From: a virus
UHGV virus genome: UHGV-0038079
Length of the DNA stretch: 27,742 nucleotides
Strand: one strand, 5' to 3'
Position numbers and translations under genes: made by a program. The notes beneath the pieces are model-generated. The model saw only the letters and a list, made by a program, of their open reading frames with translations, was not told where the DNA came from and did no database searches. Positions within the stretch are counted from its first letter, which is position 1. Each line of letters begins with the position of its first letter. Positions 13,816-27,201 of the stretch are shown one piece after another.

Positions 13816-14757
13816 TTAAATGCCATCAACGTACGAAATGGTTTCTTTGTACACTGGCTCGACTGCACCCAGCTTGCCGTAGTAAGTGACGATCTGATAC
13901 AGACCGCGATACTGCACCGGCACGCTCTGAAGCGGAACCAGCGGGTAGCGGACGTATTTTTTATCGTTGGTGTACGCAACCATGCGATCCTTATTCCCCA
14001 CACCACGGCCTTTCAGCCATTTAACCGCGCGGATATTCAGCGGAACACCGTTCTGGTGATAGCTGATGGTGTTGGTCTGAAGGTACGTCAACAGGGACTG
14101 GTTACCCGCAGATGAAACGATGATGCTGGACAACAGAGCAAACTGCTCAGGCGGGATCAGCAAATCACGCGGAACCACAGAGTAACCGGAAGCGGCCCAC
14201 GCATCAGACAGCACCTGGTTAATGCTTGCGCGGATTTCGTCCGGTGTTGAGGTTGCCCACGTTTTGGCAGCGTTGTTGACAGGAACACCGTTCAGGGTAA
14301 CAAGGCCTTTCAGGTTTAATGCTGAATCGCCAACATATACCTGTTCATCGTTATCCATCTGCCATTTCAGTTGCATCCCGTCATACTTCTGCGTATCGAT
14401 CGGGCGTCCGACCTGCTGAGCAGCCTGCAATTCTATGACCGTCCAGCCAAGTTCCATCCCCCACAGGTTCAGCGGGTTACCGGATTTGCCGATATCCACG
14501 TTCACGCCAGCAATAGCGGTTGAGTCTTTGCCTACCCAGTTTTTGCCATTCGGATTTGCGCCAGTACCCGCAGCGGCGAAGCTGGTATTCGTCCAGCTGG
14601 AAATGTCATCTGCGATGGAGACATCTTCACGCAGTTGGATATCGCGGGTCCAGGTGTACCCCACCAGTGGCAGGTTCAGCGTCTGGTCGAGTCGTTCCAG
14701 CTCCCCGATGAGAAAGGCACCAGAGCTGTCAACGGTTGCCTGATCAAAAGTAATCAT
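13816..14757 (-). CDS. Major capsid protein, 313 aa
   Basis: Position after scaffold and decoration genes; followed by a strong GC hairpin at 13785..13808. Confidence 0.65.
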   Translation of the reverse strand: MITFDQATVDSSGAFLIGELERLDQTLNLPLVGYTWTRDIQLREDVSIADDISSWTNTSFAAAGTGANPNGKNWVGKDSTAIAGVNVDIGKSGNPLNLWGMELGWTVIELQAAQQVGRPIDTQKYDGMQLKWQMDNDEQVYVGDSALNLKGLVTLNGVPVNNAAKTWATSTPDEIRASINQVLSDAWAASGYSVVPRDLLIPPEQFALLSSIIVSSAGNQSLLTYLQTNTISYHQNGVPLNIRAVKWLKGRGVGNKDRMVAYTNDKKYVRYPLVPLQSVPVQYRGLYQIVTYYGKLGAVEPVYKETISYVDGI

Positions 14758-20781: not shown

Positions 20782-20803
20782 AAATTACCTTTAAGGATTT
20801 CAC

Positions 20804-21022
20804 ATGAGTGATGAATACAAACAGAAAATCGGCATTCCAGATGACCATACACTGGAGCTTGTCTCTTCTAACTGGAAAGGAGCTCGAAAAGGTCAGGATA
20901 CCGATGAATACCTTTACCGTGAGTTGGACACTGCGGGAAATGTAGTGGCCACTTATGAAATTAAAGATTCAACTTCTATATATCCACCATTCGGAAGATC
21001 TATCTCTTATAAGAAGGTCTAA
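20804..21022 (+). CDS. Hypothetical protein, 72 aa, divergent from the terminase operon
   Basis: SD AAGGA 7 nt upstream of ATG 20804; plus-strand gene embedded in a minus-strand operon; no family recognised. Confidence 0.5.
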   Translation: MSDEYKQKIGIPDDHTLELVSSNWKGARKGQDTDEYLYRELDTAGNVVATYEIKDSTSIYPPFGRSISYKKV

Positions 21023-21355
21023 GCAACCAGCTGACCAGCATGGCATTTCCGATTGAACATTTACACGTCCAGGATAATGCCATGTCTATTCCACAGTTCT
21101 ATCGTCACCTACCGATATTGGCGTGAACTACACGCACTTGACATCAGCAGGAGCGAAGTACGCCCCCTCCCGTCTAGGTCGCCAGCGGCACAAAGCCATT
21201 AACCAGCTCAGGCTGACGTCGTGACATCTTGCCCGTTTACTCGCCGCCGTCGTTCGTATTCAGTTTGATGATGTAGATGTCGGACATTGAGATCCTCTTT
21301 ATCCGCTTGTGGGGATATCAGTTAAGTTATCCCGTGTAGGGTATAAGCCATTATC

Positions 21356-21381
21356 AAAGCCATTCTGCAAGGAATGGCTTT
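21356..21381. terminator. Strong 10-bp stem hairpin, possible weak or bidirectional terminator
   Basis: AAAGCCATTC-TGCAAG-GAATGGCTTT; flanked by only short T stretches. Confidence 0.4.
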
Positions 21382-21411
21382 TGTGATGGCAATAAAAACA
21401 GCCGCAGGAGG

Positions 21412-21660
21412 TTAGATTAAGTCTTCACGTTTTACATATTCATCGATGTGATAAAGATGCATAAACTTTTCATCATGCCCACCAAATATCTGTGTTATCG
21501 ATTCGTCATCCCGGCCTTCAACAATTAAATGCTTTTCATGTGTTCCCGGCATAAATAACGCCCTTACAACATGTTCTAAGTGGTGTTTGAACTGTATGTG
21601 AAGCTCTCTTTCATCCTCAAAAGGAATATTTTCGGTAAGTTCAAAATAACGAAATGCCAT
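21412..21660 (-). CDS. Hypothetical His- and acid-rich protein, 82 aa
   Basis: SD GGGAGG 6 nt upstream of ATG 21660; own promoter-like region with palindromes; 9 His in 82 residues. Confidence 0.55.
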   Translation of the reverse strand: MAFRYFELTENIPFEDERELHIQFKHHLEHVVRALFMPGTHEKHLIVEGRDDESITQIFGGHDEKFMHLYHIDEYVKREDLI

Positions 21661-21686
21661 ATCTACCTCCCGTATAATGAGAGCTC

Positions 21687-21715
21687 ATCATTAATGAATT
21701 TTCTTGTCATGACAA
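21687..21715 (-). promoter_or_regulatory. Predicted promoter of the 82-aa gene with overlapping palindromic operator-like sites
   Basis: Minus-strand -35 TTGTCA, 17-bp spacer, -10 AATGAT; perfect 12-bp palindrome TTGTCATGACAA (plus 21704..21715) over the -35; near-palindrome TAATGAGAGCTCATCATTA (plus 21673..21691) over the -10/start region. Confidence 0.35.
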
Positions 21716-21911
21716 TGACAAATTATTTCAGGTTCCATTAGATATAGCTTTGTAATGAACAGGCACTTATCTCAACGCAGCCCCTTACCGCGCGCCAGAT
21801 GCTCAACTTCAAGCATCAGCAATGAGATGTTTAATCTGGATTCACTCCAGAAGTAATCACCACCCTGTCTACAGAGCCAGATGTGAAGAATGATGAGTAA
21901 AATTATCGCTA

Positions 21912-22379
21912 TCATCGAAGGCATTGCATCCTGATGTATTCCTGAAGCGCTCTCAGTGCTGTTTGGTCGCGGATAATTCCGTCCCGGATACCGAGAACGT
22001 TTCGTCCAGCACTTGGAGAGAGTTCGACGGTGGCATCATTGCCCATGCCGGAGGCGCTGGAGGTTTCGGCTGAGGATGGCACAGGGGATTTTCCTTTGAC
22101 GAGCACCCTGCCACCATCATCAAGCTTGCGCCGAAGAGCATCATTTTCAGCTTTCGCATCAGCTAACTCCTTCGTGTATTTAGCATCGAGTGCATCAGCA
22201 TCACGCTGGCGCTGCTGCATGTCAGTAATGGTGGCGTTCGCCTTCTCCAGTTCACTGGCCTTGTTATCGCGCTGCTCTTTGTAGGCGATTGCGTTATCAC
22301 GGTAATGATTAACAGCCCATGACAGGCAGACGATGATGCAGATAACCAGAGCGGAGATAATCGCGGTTACTCTGTTCAT
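21912..22379 (-). CDS. Rz: Rz i-spanin
   Basis: N-terminal TM helix ([23 protein letters not shown]) then coiled-coil; ATG 22379 overlaps the endolysin stop (ATGA). Confidence 0.8.
21953..22159 (-). CDS. Rz1: Rz1 o-spanin, embedded in Rz in the +1 frame
   Basis: Lipoprotein signal with lipobox ([16 protein letters not shown]) followed by a proline-rich segment; entirely inside Rz. Confidence 0.75.
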
Positions 22380-22873
22380 TGCTGACCCCACAAACAGATT
22401 TCACGCTCAATCTCACGACGAGTCATGAGACCTTTCCATTGCTTACCGCCAGCATATGTCCAGCGACGTAGCTGATCACATGCGCCTTTGATATCGCCCT
22501 GGTTTATTTTGCGAAGAAGCGTCGATGTTCTGAAATTGCCAGCACCCACGTTGTAAATGAATGAGTAAAGAGCGCCGCGCGTTGTTTCCGGTATATCGAC
22601 TTTGATGTACGGGTTAATTTGTCTGGCGACAGTGGCAAGATCTTTATTCAGGAGGGCTTTGCATTCTGCTTCGGTATACGTTTTACCGAGCATGATGTCT
22701 TTTCCGGTGTGTCCGTGACATACAGTCCATACGCCAACGATATCTTTGTATGGTATGTAGCTGACACCTTCCAGGCCATCGTCACCACTCGGACCAGTGA
22801 TGAGCACAGACGCTATGGCAACAGCCCCACCACCAATAGCAGCAGCAACAGCCTTGCGTAATGATGGCGACAT
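22376..22873 (-). CDS. R: SAR endolysin (phage 21 R-type lysozyme), 165 aa
   Basis: N-terminal signal-anchor-release segment [18 protein letters not shown] followed by a lysozyme domain; very close to the phage 21 R sequence as recalled. Confidence 0.9.
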
Positions 22874-23088
22874 TATTCACCTCTCGCAGCCTTACGCTTG
22901 TCTTCTCTGATTTTGAAATACAGATTTGTCAGATAAGTGAGAAAACCCAACACAAGGCTTCCAAGCACTCCAATCGCAGCCCACTGTGACGGACTGACCT
23001 GATCCAACCACTGCAAAAACCAGTATCCTGCACTACCAGCAGATGTTCCGTAGGCAATGCCAGTTGAGATTTTGTCCATTGATTTCAT
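22873..23088 (-). CDS. S: Class II pinholin (phage 21 S-type), 71 aa, dual start
   Basis: [30 protein letters not shown]... near-identical to S21 as recalled; Met1/Met4 dual-start motif; SD GGAGG. Confidence 0.9.
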
Positions 23089-23135
23089 AGCAACGCCTCC
23101 GCCAGTAACGGATTGCGTAGTTCTTATATTGGGAA

Positions 23136-23199
23136 GGGAGAAAAAGAAGGCCGTAGCATAACTATCACTGATGAGTTCAGGATAGCCAGTGGCTACGGC
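23136..23199 (-). other. Long hairpin followed by a T-rich run between the tRNAs and the holin gene
   Basis: GCCGTAGC ... GCTACGGC 8-bp arms around a 34-nt interior with an inner CACTG/CAGTG stem, then CTTCTTTTTCT on the minus strand. Confidence 0.3.
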
Positions 23200-23206
23200 T
23201 CAGTTT

Positions 23207-23282
23207 TGGTGCTGGTTAACGGACTTGACCCGCTACCAATTCGCTTACAAGGCGACCGCTCTACCATTGGAGCTAAACCAGC
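23207..23282 (-). tRNA. tRNA, anticodon UGU (Thr-like), 76 nt with encoded CCA
   Basis: Hand-folded cloverleaf: 7-bp acceptor stem GCTGGTT/AACCAGC, D arm GCTC-CAATGGTA-GAGC, anticodon loop CTTGTAA, discriminator A + CCA; T loop GTCAAGT has G at position 54 (non-canonical). Confidence 0.6.
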
Positions 23283-23287
23283 ATGTT

Positions 23288-23362
23288 TGGCGGGACAGCG
23301 TGGACTCGAACCACGATAAGAAGGTTAACAGCCTTCCGTAATGACCTTTATACGACTGACCC
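23288..23362 (-). tRNA. tRNA, anticodon GUU (Asn-like), 75 nt with encoded CCA
   Basis: Hand-folded cloverleaf: canonical T arm CGTGG-TTCGAGT-CCACG, anticodon arm GAAGG-CTGTTAA-CCTTC, acceptor GGGTCAG/CTGTCCC with one T:T mismatch, discriminator G + CCA. Confidence 0.6.
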
Positions 23363-23405
23363 AAATAAAAAAAAGCCACCGTTGCAACTTAAGAGTCACT
23401 AACGG
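23363..23405 (-). terminator. tR'-like terminator just downstream of the late promoter
   Basis: Minus-strand CCGTT...AACGG stem (with internal GTTGCAAC palindrome) followed by TGGC-TTTTTTTT; the loop is large, so strength is uncertain. Confidence 0.4.
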
Positions 23406-23419
23406 CAGCTTACCTTCTA

Positions 23420-23449
23420 ATTATGGCTAAATGGATAATTGCATGTCAA
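23420..23449 (-). promoter_or_regulatory. PR'-like late promoter (presumed Q target)
   Basis: Minus-strand perfect -35 TTGACA (plus 23444..23449, inside the last Q codons), 18-bp spacer, -10 CATAAT (plus 23420..23425). Confidence 0.5.
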
Positions 23450-23945
23450 GGCTTTTAACAGCAACATGCTTAACTTTCTCAACACGTTTACGCATTTTGA
23501 AAGCATTTTGCATTGGCTGGTACAAAACAAATAACGACGCTTTCAGGATGTCGTCAATTTCGTTTCTACAGGTTGCCAGTGAAGGTTTTCTCCATCCCTC
23601 GCCACCACGTCCACACATCTTGCGTGGCTTTGCAGTCGCGTGATAGTAGGATGCAATTGCTCGCTTAGATGAACCATGAGCGTAGTAGCTGAGGAGGATG
23701 CCAAAGGCTTTCTTGTCAATGTACATGACGGAATCGACGACCTGAGAAATCAACATTCCATCATCATCATTACACATTGGCCTTGTCATAACTCTTCCCG
23801 GCTCTACGCTCTCCATGAACTTCGCTATTACGCTGCTCATGCGCTTTTCCAGACGACCTGAATAAACCCATGCGCCCCACAGTTCAAGCCAGCCATTCAG
23901 CCACTCGTGCTGCTCTTTGGTGAGGTTTAGTTCTCTTATGCTCAT
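23427..23945 (-). CDS. Q: Late-gene antiterminator Q (phage 21/82-type family), 172 aa
   Basis: Position between ninH and the late promoter/lysis genes; motif WGAW...RPMCNDDDGMLI...LSYY as recalled for non-lambda Q families. Confidence 0.7.
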   Translation of the reverse strand: MSIRELNLTKEQHEWLNGWLELWGAWVYSGRLEKRMSSVIAKFMESVEPGRVMTRPMCNDDDGMLISQVVDSVMYIDKKAFGILLSYYAHGSSKRAIASYYHATAKPRKMCGRGGEGWRKPSLATCRNEIDDILKASLFVLYQPMQNAFKMRKRVEKVKHVAVKSLDMQLSI

Positions 23946-24130
23946 CGTCTTCCTCTCTTGCCCTGTTTGACCATCAGGACGCCGTTAACTATTACGTGAC
24001 GCTCGCCTTTGCTGTCTCGGTTGTACTTGAGCACTGTTCCTCTTGCACAGGAAAGCATCCTCGCCACTTCGGTCTGATTGCCTCGTGTCTGGATAAGAAG
24101 CTCTGGTATCGTTTGAATTGTGGCGTTCAT
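23942..24130 (-). CDS. ninH: NinH-like protein, 62 aa
   Basis: TIPELLIQTRGNQTEVARMLSCARGTVLKY matches lambda NinH as recalled (TIPDMLVETYGNQTEVARRLKCSRGTVRKY). Confidence 0.75.
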   Translation of the reverse strand: MNATIQTIPELLIQTRGNQTEVARMLSCARGTVLKYNRDSKGERHVIVNGVLMVKQGKRGRR

Positions 24131-24489
24131 ACGTTCTCCAGTTCGGTGATTTTTATTCCAAGCCTTCCGCCTGGTACTTTCACACCACGAATTACGCGAA
24201 TGTCATCGAATTGCTCGTCGTCTTCCGCAAATCCGGCGTGGATAAGGGAGTCGAGTAAACCTTTCAGGATGTTGTCGAGGTCGCGGCGGCGGGAGTCTGG
24301 AACGTCTGCGATGACTTTGATGCGGAGTCGTGATTTGGTGAAAATGTCTAACTTAAGTTGGCGGATGATTTGCTGAACGTCTTTTCGGTATTTCTGGCCT
24401 TTATCGCTTATGTAATATTGGCTTCCCCGTCTTCGCCAGTAGGTATTCACCGACGGCGGGTATGGAAGCACAAACTGATATTCGTTCAT
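24127..24489 (-). CDS. rusA: RusA Holliday-junction resolvase, 120 aa
   Basis: LPYPPSVN...DVPDSRRRDLDNILKGLLDSL...GGRLGIKITE matches RusA hallmark motifs. Confidence 0.85.
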   Translation of the reverse strand: MNEYQFVLPYPPSVNTYWRRRGSQYYISDKGQKYRKDVQQIIRQLKLDIFTKSRLRIKVIADVPDSRRRDLDNILKGLLDSLIHAGFAEDDEQFDDIRVIRGVKVPGGRLGIKITELENV

Positions 24490-24776
24490 GACTTAATCTT
24501 CCCCTCCTTCAGCAGTATCGCCTGCGTCCTGATTACGCCTTCGAGGTGGTAAAGTCTGGCGTCTTTGTTGTCGAGATTATGGGTGCGTCGGTCGATTTCA
24601 TCGTGGCAGTCACTACAAGCCCATGCGCCGATCAGGTCGTCAGGTTTCATTCCCGTTCCGCAAATTCCAGCCATCCGGTAATGTGCCAGAACTGTAGTTT
24701 CAGGATTACCATTGCATACGCCGTAAATACGTACCTGGCATTCTCTGCCGCGTGCTTCTTTGCGTAGGTTAGCCAT
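24486..24776 (-). CDS. YbcO-like putative nuclease (DUF1364), 96 aa
   Basis: MANLRKEARGRECQVRIYGVCNGNPETTVLAHYR...CSDCHDEIDRRTH closely resembles DLP12 YbcO as recalled. Confidence 0.75.
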   Translation of the reverse strand: MANLRKEARGRECQVRIYGVCNGNPETTVLAHYRMAGICGTGMKPDDLIGAWACSDCHDEIDRRTHNLDNKDARLYHLEGVIRTQAILLKEGKIKS

Positions 24777-25498
24777 TAAGCAGCCTCCCCGGTTACTTTC
24801 AGCATCCCGTTATCGAGCAGCTTTCTGGTCAGCCACTGTTGACCACGCCCGGTGATTTTTGTGGTGAACGATATCTGTATTCCGTGATTTGTGTTGACCG
24901 CTGTTTCTTTCACTGTGAAATAGCCGCGATCCATATATTCCTGCATTGGCACATTGCGCCGGGAACCTGAAGCAATTAGGATTTTGTGATCGCGCATCCA
25001 CGCAAACAGCTTGTTCGGACCAATACCGACAACCTTTGCAAAGTTTCCAATCAAAATTCCGCTGGCCTCGCCAACGCGATCGGCAAACTCAACTTTAGGT
25101 GCGGCAATTGCGAGCTGGTTTTCCAGTTGCATTTTCTGCTCAGCAAGATCAGCAGCAAGGCGCAACGCTTCCGGTAGCGTTTTGGGGATATTAACCGCAG
25201 CTTCTTCAAGCTCTCGCCAGCGGTCAACAAGGCGAGCGGTGAACTCTGGCGACAACTGAGCGACAACGACAATACTGTCTCGCTTACCTTGTTCGCCCTC
25301 GAAGACGTAATGCTCGTACTGAACATTGAACCCTAAGTTATTGATTCTTTCGGAAACCTCAATTTGAGGAAGCCGGATAACACCATTTTTAGCCAGCGTT
25401 TCGATGGTACGTTTCACATTGTCATGACGCTTACCCACCAACTCAGCGATTTCAATGCTTGTCATTTTGATGGCATTGCCATTTATTAACTCATTCAT
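24776..25498 (-). CDS. Antirepressor-like regulatory protein (Rha N-terminal domain + KilA-C/ANT C-terminal domain), 240 aa
   Basis: N-terminal SIEIAELVGKRHDNVKRTIETL (Rha-like), C-terminal ...GNFAKVVGIGPNKLFAWMRDHKIL (KilAC-like). Confidence 0.7.
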   Translation of the reverse strand: MNELINGNAIKMTSIEIAELVGKRHDNVKRTIETLAKNGVIRLPQIEVSERINNLGFNVQYEHYVFEGEQGKRDSIVVVAQLSPEFTARLVDRWRELEEAAVNIPKTLPEALRLAADLAEQKMQLENQLAIAAPKVEFADRVGEASGILIGNFAKVVGIGPNKLFAWMRDHKILIASGSRRNVPMQEYMDRGYFTVKETAVNTNHGIQISFTTKITGRGQQWLTRKLLDNGMLKVTGEAA

Positions 25499-26067: not shown

Positions 26068-26240
26068 TTCCTCGCACGATGTCTTAGCCACCGGATATCC
26101 CACAGGTGAGCCGTGTAGTTGAAGGTTTTTACGTCAGATTCTTTTGGGATTGGCTTGCGTTTATTTCTGGAGCGCTTCGTTGGAAGGTATTTGCAGTTTT
26201 CGCAGATGATGTCGGTGATACTTCGTCGCTGTCGTCTCAT
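26064..26240 (-). CDS. ninE: NinE-like protein, 58 aa
   Basis: [47 protein letters not shown] matches lambda NinE as recalled; ATG overlaps the dam stop (ATGA). Confidence 0.75.
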
Positions 26241-26764
26241 GCTGCCCTCCTGACGCCCTGCCCGATCGCCATCAATGCCGCTTTGGATACGGTAGTAAAC
26301 ATCCGTCGAGGACTGATGAACGGTCGCCAAATCAGCAGCATGGAACCTTTGCTGTTTCCCTTCTTCTCCAGCCCTGTCGATGGTTCGATAAAATTAATCC
26401 GTCCATCAGTGATGATGCGAACTTCGTCAACACTCTCCAGAGCCTTGCTGAACCATCCGACAGACATATCCTCTGGCACAAGCATCACTACCGTCTGTCG
26501 CTGTTGCATGCACTGCTCAGCGGCTTTTTCCACCCACGGCCTGATATTGCTGTACGGTGGGTTATTCCAGATTGCACCGTGGCTTATCCACTCAGAATTT
26601 AGCGCGTCGTCAGCCTCAGTTAGCCAGTGAGCGCACAGAGCATTTTTGTCGCTCGCTGCCGAATCCAGCCAGAATCCAAACTCAATATCCAGTGCATCAA
26701 AAAGCCAAAGCGGCGTTTGCCAGCAGTCCTTGTCGTGTGCTGGCGTATTTGATTTGATAGTCAT
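26237..26764 (-). CDS. Phage-type DNA N6-adenine methyltransferase (orphan Dam family), about 175 aa
   Basis: [16 protein letters not shown]-terminus and NPPY catalytic motif (IWNNPPYSN); ATG 26764 overlaps the ninB stop. Confidence 0.8.
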
Positions 26765-27201
26765 GCAGCCCGATCTCCCCATCGCGCTTTCCATTCGAGA
26801 GCCAGTCGCGCTTCGTCTGACCACTTAACGCCACGCTCTGTACCGAATGCCTGTATAAGCTCTAATAGCTCCGCAAATTCGCTTACACGCATCCTGCTGG
26901 TTGACTGGCCTATTACCACAAAGCCATTCCCGGCAAGGTTAGGAACAACGTCCTGCTGCTTTAATGCTGCGGTAAACACACACTTCCAGCTTTCTGCATC
27001 CAGCCAGCGCCCATGCCATTCAACCTGACGAGAGACGTCACCAAGGCAAGCCCAAAGCTTTCGATTCTGGTCTAAGCTGCGGTTGCGTTCCTGAATGGTT
27101 ACTACGATTGGTTTGGTTGGGTCTGGAAGAATTTGCTGTACCGCGTGAATAGCGTTTTGCTGATGTGCTGGAGATCGAATTTCAAAGGTTAGTTTTTTCA
27201 T
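26761..27201 (-). CDS. ninB: NinB recombination protein, 146 aa
   Basis: MKKLTFEIRSPAHQQNAIHAVQQILPDPTKPIVVTIQERNRSLDQNRKLWACLGDV... essentially the lambda NinB sequence as recalled; start set at MKKLTF (27201). Confidence 0.9.
   Translation of the reverse strand: MKKLTFEIRSPAHQQNAIHAVQQILPDPTKPIVVTIQERNRSLDQNRKLWACLGDVSRQVEWHGRWLDAESWKCVFTAALKQQDVVPNLAGNGFVVIGQSTSRMRVSEFAELLELIQAFGTERGVKWSDEARLALEWKARWGDRAA

Follow-up and report, generated by a model that had tools for sequence, protein, structure and literature searches.

Why does a temperate phage carry one asparagine and one threonine tRNA gene, side by side, between its late promoter and its lysis genes? The question is raised by a viral DNA of 27,742 nucleotides (UHGV virus genome UHGV-0038079; this whole stretch is called the window below), in which a first-pass annotation had read an Asn-like (GUU) and a Thr-like (UGU) tRNA gene and had proposed that they either supply codons or are decaying copies. 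The pair is the already known tRNA-Asn/tRNA-Thr cassette of the phage 21/Sf6/SfI/BTP1 type, which lies just past the late terminator tR'. As such it is ordinary, having been annotated since the work on Sf6 and phage 21. Its tRNAs probably act, as ordinary elongators, as replacements for host tRNAs that are destroyed by OLD-family Toprim defence nucleases; this explanation, the one with direct experimental support, had been left out of the first-pass annotation.

The tRNA-Asn/tRNA-Thr pair and its relatives

ARAGORN detected exactly two tRNA genes in the window, tRNA-Asn(GUU) (75 nt, 23288..23362, called gtt) and tRNA-Thr(UGU) (76 nt, 23207..23282, called tgt). Rfam agreed with these calls, and both genes are where they had first been placed; they lie on the minus strand, which had not been specified, and are separated by a 5-nt spacer, AACAU (23283..23287, minus strand). 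Against Rfam RF00005 (gathering score 29) tRNA-Asn and tRNA-Thr scored 55.3 and 54.7 bits, respectively, with E-values of ~2e-9; both calls are therefore far above chance, and neither gene fell under the threshold, which both exceed by about 25 bits. Each gene encodes its own CCA end, as had been proposed, read on the plus strand as 'tgg' at 23288-23290 (Asn) and at 23207-23209 (Thr).

The identity set of E. coli AsnRS consists of the G34-U35-U36 anticodon and of the discriminator base G73, and that of E. coli ThrRS of G1-C72, C2-G71, G35 and U36. The first set is present in tRNA-Asn (anticodon loop CUGUUAA, G73 preceding CCA) and the second in tRNA-Thr (GCUGGUU...AACCAGC-A-CCA, with G1-C72, C2-G71 and A73; anticodon UGU). 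Given these identity elements, both tRNAs should serve as ordinary elongator tRNAs. Homologous tRNA genes were called in published tRNAscan-SE runs in SfI (PMC3636060), in phage L (PMC8022706) and in phage 21.

Both molecules have irregular features. In the Infernal alignment, tRNA-Asn has two stem mismatches, U4:U69 in the acceptor stem, which is the T:T mismatch seen at first, and U13:U22; its T loop (U54-U55-C56-R57-A58) and its U8-A14 tertiary pair are canonical. In tRNA-Thr the anticodon stem GUCGC/GCGAA is reduced to 4 bp by the unpaired G27:A43, position 14 is C (23269), and the T loop in the same alignment reads G54-U-C-A-A-G-U instead of the canonical U54-U-C-R-A-N-U. The G at position 54 had been recognized in the first-pass annotation; U13:U22, G27:A43 and C14 are additions to it. 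With G54 and C14, tRNA-Thr lacks the canonical T loop and the U8-A14 pair, yet it is well above the Rfam threshold; these bases lower the expected fitness of the molecule, not its status as a tRNA gene.

A 401-nt query around the tRNAs matched 94 phage records, and tRNA-Asn and tRNA-Thr are annotated at the matching spot in BTP1, Sf6, SPN9CC, vB_SosS_Oslo and phage 21. A 191-nt block was found in 369 of 5426 complete E. coli genomes (~7%), where tRNA-Thr and tRNA-Asn are annotated, and the arrangement Asn(gtt)-Thr(tgt) in 117 of 122 related loci, with AACAT (53 loci) or AATAT (61 loci) as the spacer. The order of elements on the minus strand of the window, which bears out the proposed location between late promoter and lysis genes, is Q, PR', tR', tRNA-Asn, tRNA-Thr, a second hairpin, holin S, lysozyme and Rz/Rz1. 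All the marks of the cassette were found: a position 3' of tR', Q and PR' upstream, lysis genes downstream, the Asn-Thr order, the 5-nt spacer and the 3' hairpin. When the window was aligned with Sf6 and phage 21, the tR' hairpin, tRNA-Asn, the spacer, tRNA-Thr and the downstream hairpin were nearly identical, and the promoter/Q-binding and holin regions were mosaic. A tandem pair downstream of Q has been described in SfI, Sf6, ST64T, PS3 and P21 (PMC3636060), and tRNAs at the same position in P22-like phages (PMC8022706). The Sf6 record (AF547987) annotates PR', qut, tR', a tRNA-Asn 'similar to phage 21' and tRNA-Thr; the phage 21 record (OL657228) annotates PR', the Q-binding element, the start site, the terminator and two tRNAs (CPT_21_64/65).

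Phage 21 has PR', tR', tRNA-Asn, a 5-nt spacer, tRNA-Thr, the hairpin and the S21 pinholin in the same layout as the window. Its tRNA-Asn is identical to that of the window (75/75), and its tRNA-Thr is 96% identical (73/76) with an identical anticodon arm, the window copy having A26G, G45U and U54G. The two phages differ in that the PR'/Q-binding region of the window is of the Sf6 type, and in that the virion genes of the window are those of an E. coli myovirus (vB_EcoM-611R5-like), whereas phage 21 is a lambda-like siphovirus. tRNA-Asn of the window is also identical to the Sf6 copy. In Sf6, SfI, BTP1 and ST64T, with annotated PR', qut, tR', tRNA-Asn (AAC) and tRNA-Thr (ACA), the module is 96.6-98% identical to that of the window; unlike the window, all have U54. 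Sf6 further differs by a lambda-type S holin downstream and a longer spacer, whereas SfI resembles the window in being a lambdoid myovirus that has the pair downstream of Q. For phage L and ST64T, Asn together with Leu(UAA) in place of Thr has been reported (PMC8022706).

Recent capture of host tRNA genes was considered and rejected, as E. coli thrU and asn gave only 53 and 48 matches, respectively, over 78 columns. In the Stx phage 933W, ileZ-argN-argO occupies the corresponding slot of the late leader, after Q/PR'/tR' and before the first late genes, so that the initial comparison with lambdoid phages, Stx phages included, is correct for the position. The 933W tRNAs themselves differ: they are rare-codon Ile and Arg tRNAs of unrelated sequence, associated with another type of Q/PR', and they are classically regarded as a supply for the rare codons of stx and the late genes. 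Three tRNA genes are reported in 933W-type phages (PMC4631060).

Other arrays that end in the same tRNA-Thr(tgt) were observed among the related loci (L003-L122): Ile(gat)-Thr, Met-Arg(tct)-Gly(tcc)-Thr, Ala(cgc)-Asn-Thr and Thr(cgt)-Asn-Thr. All of these arrays have Thr(UGU) in common; two of the other members, Ile(GAU) and Thr(CGU), have been reported as secondary targets of the nuclease HepS. In addition, the exact tRNA-Thr 28-mer is present in two GTDB contigs, L125 and L127 (3.9 and 6.9 kb), from metagenome-assembled genomes assigned to Segatella copri and Collinsella sp., respectively; these are most likely mis-binned Enterobacteriaceae phage contigs.

Host tRNA nucleases and the anticodon arms

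Threonine tRNAs are recurrent targets of nucleases. In P2-lambda interference the effector is P2-OLD, which kills through cleavage of host tRNA-Thr(UGU); the cuts fall after the C of paired CNG motifs in the anticodon stem, at positions 28-30 and 40-42 (Govande et al. 2025, PMC12445682). In the same study, phage tRNA-Thr(UGU) genes rescued P2-OLD cells, 'Thr21' of phage 21 being among the protectors; Thr21 resisted P2-OLD cleavage in vitro and restored ACA decoding in vivo, and the resistance of rescue tRNAs was attributed to a shortened anticodon stem together with alteration of the CNG motifs (C28U/G42A in Thr21). P2-OLD also cleaves tRNA-Asn(GUU), more slowly than thrU (PMC12445682). AriB, the nuclease of PARIS, cleaves host Lys(UUU), Thr(UGU) and Asn(GUU) within U36AAUCN41, between the C and N41 (Belukhina et al. 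2025, PMC12409363). Mutation of U39 abolishes AriB cleavage, A41C and U16C impair it, and T5 variants of the Lys, Thr and Asn tRNAs jointly neutralize PARIS, the Lys(UUU) variant being required (PMC12409363). HepS of Gifsy-1 also cleaves Thr isoacceptors.

The anticodon arms of the cassette tRNAs were compared with those of host thrU and asn, whose sequences were verified against ~5420 genomes. Host thrU has CUG/CAG as CNG motifs in a 5-bp anticodon stem, UAAUCA at positions 36-41 and U16; at the same places, tRNA-Thr of the window and that of phage 21 have UCG/CGA, a 4-bp stem, UAAGCG and A16 (23267 in the window). Host asn has CGG/CCG, a 5-bp stem, UAAUCC and U16, and tRNA-Asn of the window has AAG/CUU, hence no CNG motifs, in a 5-bp stem (GAAGG/CCUUC), UAACCU and A16 (23347). 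Position 39 is U in both host tRNAs, G in tRNA-Thr and C in tRNA-Asn of the window. The states of the CNG positions, of positions 36-41 and of position 16 are fixed across the family.

Positions 27-43 of tRNA-Thr are identical to those of Thr21, and the only three positions at which the two copies differ (26, 45 and 54) lie beyond the arm. tRNA-Thr of the window combines the three sequence features linked to P2-OLD resistance, the UGU anticodon, the loss of the CNG motifs and the unpaired 27:43; both tRNAs have, by sequence, those expected for insensitivity to AriB (altered U39/N41 and U16). The G27:A43 'defect' matches the shortened stem identified as a resistance determinant in the OLD study. 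The replacement function has been demonstrated by others for tRNA-Thr of phage 21, and tRNA-Asn is predicted to be resistant as well.

That Thr(UGU) is paired with Asn(GUU) is understandable, since each of the two Toprim nucleases attacks the host versions of both. For tRNA-Asn, the purpose of which was unclear to earlier authors, it is relevant that its host counterpart is attacked by P2 Old and by PARIS AriB alike, and this shared targeting offers a simple, testable reason why the two isoacceptors travel together. Phage T5 likewise has Thr(UGU) and Asn(GUU) isoacceptors substituted at or around the AriB site (39-41) and at U16 (PMC12409363); it differs in being a virulent phage with 24 tRNAs, including the essential Lys(UUU) variant, whereas the window has no tRNA-Lys. 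The cassette would be a natural example, in temperate phages, of phage tRNAs that replace nuclease-cut host tRNAs, a theme placed on experimental ground in 2025.

The cassette is an optional mosaic segment inserted exactly after tR', the Q-controlled terminator of PR'. In the mechanism that we consider probable, the tRNAs would be transcribed from PR', fully upon Q antitermination and possibly at a low level by read-through of tR', and host tRNA-processing enzymes would cut them from the late leader; CCA addition would be unneeded because CCA is encoded. This processing, like the timing of expression, is what we infer for the tRNAs of the window. When OLD-family Toprim nucleases such as P2 Old and PARIS AriB destroy host Thr(UGU) and Asn(GUU), the phage tRNAs, whose arms and D loops are devoid of the recognition features, would survive, and ACA and AAY codons would stay readable.

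Conservation, modularity and the G54 allele

Column diversity was 0.034 in tRNA-Asn, compared with 0.24-0.40 in the promoter/leader and in the region towards the holin. For tRNA-Thr, diversity in the same set is biased by the search pattern, and an unbiased view is given by a Q-anchored set of 80 loci (L130-L209), in which the Q protein is at least 98% identical to that of the window. In this set 18 of 33 tRNA-Thr copies were identical to that of phage 21, and one carried a compensatory change of G5:C68 to U5:A68. Four of the loci L003-L122 have an alternative tRNA-Asn body, in which the acceptor stem, including U4:U69, and the T-arm ends are kept and the D and anticodon arms differ, with five double compensatory stem changes (11:24, 27:43, 28:42, 29:41 and 50:62). 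Purifying selection on the cassette tRNAs is evident.

The irregular pairs of the two tRNAs belong to the family. Over 118 related loci, position 4:69 of tRNA-Asn is U:U in 113, U:C in three and U:G in one. Since U4:U69 is fixed across relatives and persists in the alternative Asn body, it is the family norm, and its reading as decay was rejected. G27:A43 of tRNA-Thr is present in all 118 loci, and position 14, which is a near-universal A in tRNAs, is C in 111 of them and U in seven, never A.

The Q-anchored set also provides information on the cassette as a unit. The Asn-Thr pair is present in 33 of the 80 loci and tRNA-Asn alone in two, and 45 have no tRNA. In the tRNA-less relatives the similarity runs through PR', the leader and the hairpin and U-tract of tR', and it ends precisely at G1 of tRNA-Asn (23362/23363). 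Shared flanks, with presence or absence of the tRNAs and a breakpoint at G1, therefore define the cassette as an optional mosaic unit with sharp borders, which late transcription does not require.

The base that sets the window apart is G54 of tRNA-Thr. U54 is found in 117 of 118 relatives, and in both phage 21 and Sf6; G54 was absent from all 122 loci first sampled, and the tRNA-Thr allele of the window was found in no complete E. coli genome (best match 74/76). A dedicated search recovered G54 in only two IMG/VR contigs. The first, L124, is 99.3-99.9% identical to the window, without being the same sequence, and has the same tRNA-Thr. The second, L123 (IMGVR_UViG_2744054675_000007), is a different phage, with tRNA-Thr at 641-716, in which G54 stands on a phage 21-like background (A26, G45) and is accompanied by an A5:C68 mismatch in the acceptor stem. 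In the Q-anchored set, G54 occurs in one of the 33 copies, which comes from the same contig as L124. Scans of GTDB and of metagenomes for the G54 28-mer returned nothing; their power is low, the U54 form itself having given only four GTDB hits. A sequencing artefact was rejected as the origin of G54, as the near-identical independent contig L124 and the different phage L123 both carry it, and a common lineage was rejected on the counts above (0/122, 1/33 and no complete E. coli genome). In conclusion, G54 is a real and heritable, rare derived allele at a near-invariant base, and its second background in L123 reflects either recurrent mutation or recombination.

It might be argued that the tRNAs, or at least the G54 tRNA-Thr, are non-functional relics or neutral passengers that hitch-hike with the late regulatory region. 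G54 is rare and replaces a near-invariant base, the Rfam score of tRNA-Thr falls from 61.5 bits in phage 21 to 54.7 in the window and 52.1 in L123, where G54 is joined to the A5:C68 mismatch, and further irregularities exist in tRNA-Thr (C14, G27:A43) as well as in tRNA-Asn (U4:U69, U13:U22). However, both genes of the window remain far above the Rfam threshold, and U4:U69, C14 and G27:A43 are fixed in the family rather than scattered. The tRNAs are also far more conserved than their flanks, their stems change by compensation, and the occurrence of G54 in two near-identical, non-identical contigs (the window and L124) indicates that the allele persisted at least briefly. Furthermore, G27:A43 is a demonstrated determinant of resistance in the phage 21 homologue, and the phage 21 copy is active in vivo (PMC12445682). 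We consider it improbable that the pair is a mere passenger. The decay that had been proposed at first does not apply to U4:U69, and is plausible only as mild decay for G54. The simplest reading of this allele from the sequence is that it is probably neutral to mildly deleterious, and the activity of the U54G tRNA-Thr of the window would probably be affected either not at all or mildly. U54G also offers a ready-made natural mutant with which to examine what rescue tRNAs need in T-loop integrity.

Several observations weigh against the proposal that the tRNAs of the window replace nuclease-cut host tRNAs. First, ARAGORN found no tRNA-Lys(UUU), the prime AriB target, among the two tRNA genes of the window; the cassette is therefore not a complete anti-PARIS set and cannot alone defeat PARIS. 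Second, the absence of CNG, U39 and U16 is to be expected in many unrelated tRNAs, so that it is consistent with resistance, not diagnostic of it, and a literature search found no test of a phage 21-type tRNA-Asn against AriB or Old. Third, the tRNAs lie 3' of tR', so that their full expression needs Q, which itself contains one ACA codon, and Old is triggered by the early protein Gam. Fourth, the cassette is absent from over half of the late regions that are otherwise identical. Finally, tRNA-Thr of the window has lost ~7 bits in Rfam score relative to phage 21, G54 being one of three changes; with U54G the conserved U54-A58 pair of the T loop is lost, the minimum-energy fold pairs G54 with U60, reducing the predicted T loop from 7 to 5 nt, and the additional A5:C68 mismatch of L123 hints at relaxed constraint.

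Codon usage and the architecture of the late region

The first-pass annotation had suggested that the tRNAs supply codons, and had called for a comparison of AAC and ACA between late genes and host. The 28 late genes (6843 codons) were compared with 31 E. coli genes (50 kb). ACA was enriched in the late genes (11.0 per 1000 codons versus 6.7; odds ratio 1.63, p = 0.002), where it made up 18% of Thr codons, compared with 13% in E. coli. Asparagine showed no such bias (48.5 Asn codons per 1000 versus 43.0, p = 0.07), and the AAC share was not increased (54% in late genes versus 58% in E. coli). The major capsid gene (13816..14757) and Q have one ACA codon each, and the S21-type holin has two.

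That codon supply accounts for the pair by itself, the tRNAs topping up the ACA and AAC/AAU pools for the late genes with no role against nucleases, appears doubtful to us. The ACA enrichment, and the fact that thrU is single-copy in E. coli (a median of one place per genome), speak for such a role, as do the ACA figures of 17.3% versus 7.1% in the SfI study (PMC3636060) and the capsid gene of phage L, in which 24 of 25 Asn codons are AAC (PMC8022706). However, an Asn bias is lacking and E. coli has four asn genes, the major capsid gene hardly uses ACA, and early genes, which would be translated ahead of tRNA synthesis, show the same ACA share as late ones (18% vs 19%). The same cassette is also present in podoviruses, siphoviruses and myoviruses whose late genes are unrelated, and it is missing from 45 of the 80 loci that share this Q. 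The SfI study came to the same result on codon usage, and what its Asn tRNA signifies was 'not clear' to the authors (PMC3636060); for lambdoid phages, a published t-test detected no association of tRNA carriage with codon adaptation (PMC4631060). Codon supply was therefore rejected as the main explanation of the pair, ACA being only modestly enriched and Asn not; it is a partial explanation at most, in which a modest ACA benefit may add to the replacement of cut host tRNAs.

The late promoter PR' (23420..23449, minus strand) overlaps the 3' end of Q and consists of TTGACA, an 18-nt spacer and CATAAT (11/12 matches in the consensus scan); its sequence is almost that of the annotated PR' of Sf6. 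The consensus scan upstream of the tRNAs, in search of a promoter of their own, found PR' only, and gives no evidence either way beyond that. The late leader RNA (51 nt, 23363..23413, minus strand) starts at ~23413, as placed by homology to the phage 21 start site, and contains tR', a 17-bp interrupted hairpin followed by U8AUUU (fold dG -20.2 kcal/mol, z -4.7). An identical hairpin is annotated as the late terminator in the phage 21 record (PMID 1704887) and in Sf6. The U-tract of tR' adjoins G1 of tRNA-Asn.

Directly 3' of tRNA-Thr lies a long hairpin (23199..23150) followed by a U-rich tract, the whole at 23138..23199 on the minus strand (fold dG -27.7 kcal/mol, z -5.95). Over 118 loci, 98% of its pair cells are kept, with one compensatory change from G-C to A-U, and conservation past tRNA-Thr falls only 3' of ~23150. 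It could be a second terminator, which would keep tR' read-through within the tRNA genes, or a hairpin for 3' processing or stabilization. Its sequence is CUUCUUUUUCUC; it accompanies the tRNA cassette, and is unannotated in the Sf6 and phage 21 records. A terminator scan of 22000-24500 reported no site, because both hairpins have long or interrupted stems; both were seen on folding.

This layout suggests a possible way round the delay imposed by Q: with PR' a strong promoter of constitutive type, read-through of tR' might be halted at the second hairpin, before the holin, which would yield tRNAs without lysis. In a transcriptome of the BTP1 lysogen, the two tRNA genes were set aside by the authors when listing highly expressed prophage genes (PMC7067206), a remark that is suggestive, not decisive. 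We put forward, tentatively and as a possibility only, a wider proposal: the whole cassette (tR', both tRNAs and the second hairpin) would be a mobile module of two tRNAs with which temperate enterobacterial phages specifically counter the OLD-family Toprim nucleases. In it, tRNA-Asn, with its fixed U4:U69, A16, C39 and an arm free of CNG, would be a nuclease-resistant substitute in the manner of Thr21, the placement between two terminators would let leaky PR' read-through provide tRNAs before and without expression of the lysis genes, and the recurrent U54G, found on two tRNA-Thr backgrounds, could be a further escape change and not decay. The role of tRNA-Asn and the two-terminator architecture are the testable extension of what was known of the cassette.

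The position of the pair is also relevant to a different role, in RNA processing: the tRNA folds might be RNase P or RNase E entry sites that detach leader/terminator RNA from the lysis mRNA, or that stabilize the late transcript, decoding being secondary. The start of tRNA-Asn 1 nt past the U-tract of tR', and the conserved hairpin after tRNA-Thr, would fit such an element. Nevertheless, the conservation of anticodons, identity elements and CCA goes beyond what a pure processing signal would call for, and relatives with the same PR', tR' and Q express their late genes without the cassette; in addition, tRNA-Thr of phage 21 restores ACA decoding (PMC12445682). We regard a processing role of this kind as very improbable, and the replacement of nuclease-cut host tRNAs remains the preferred reading.

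The genes around the cassette, all on the minus strand, have the lysis gene order of phage 21. Upstream, Q (23427..23945) encodes an antiterminator of 172 amino acids, of the Sf6 gp59/phage 21 Q type (Pfam PF06530 Phage_antitermQ, 1.1e-25), the homologue of which is annotated in Sf6 and phage 21. Downstream, the first lysis gene encodes an S21-type pinholin (22873..23088; PF04971 'Bacteriophage P21 holin S', 1.4e-35), followed by the endolysin, a lysozyme (22376..22873; PF00959), and by the spanin genes Rz (21912..22391; PF03245) and Rz1 (21953..22159).

Elsewhere the window carries virion genes of an E. coli myovirus, which is related to vB_EcoM-611R5 and SEN34. The interval 20800..21900, a gap that separates the small terminase subunit from Rz, contains little coding sequence, with two small open reading frames that gave no Pfam hits, 20804..21022 (plus strand) and 21412..21660 (minus strand); this gap may be a moron or accessory slot. 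A nin-like region upstream of Q encodes a phage Dam N6-adenine methyltransferase (26237..26824, minus strand; PF05869, 7e-65) and an antirepressor with Rha and KilAC (ANT) domains (24776..25498, minus strand).

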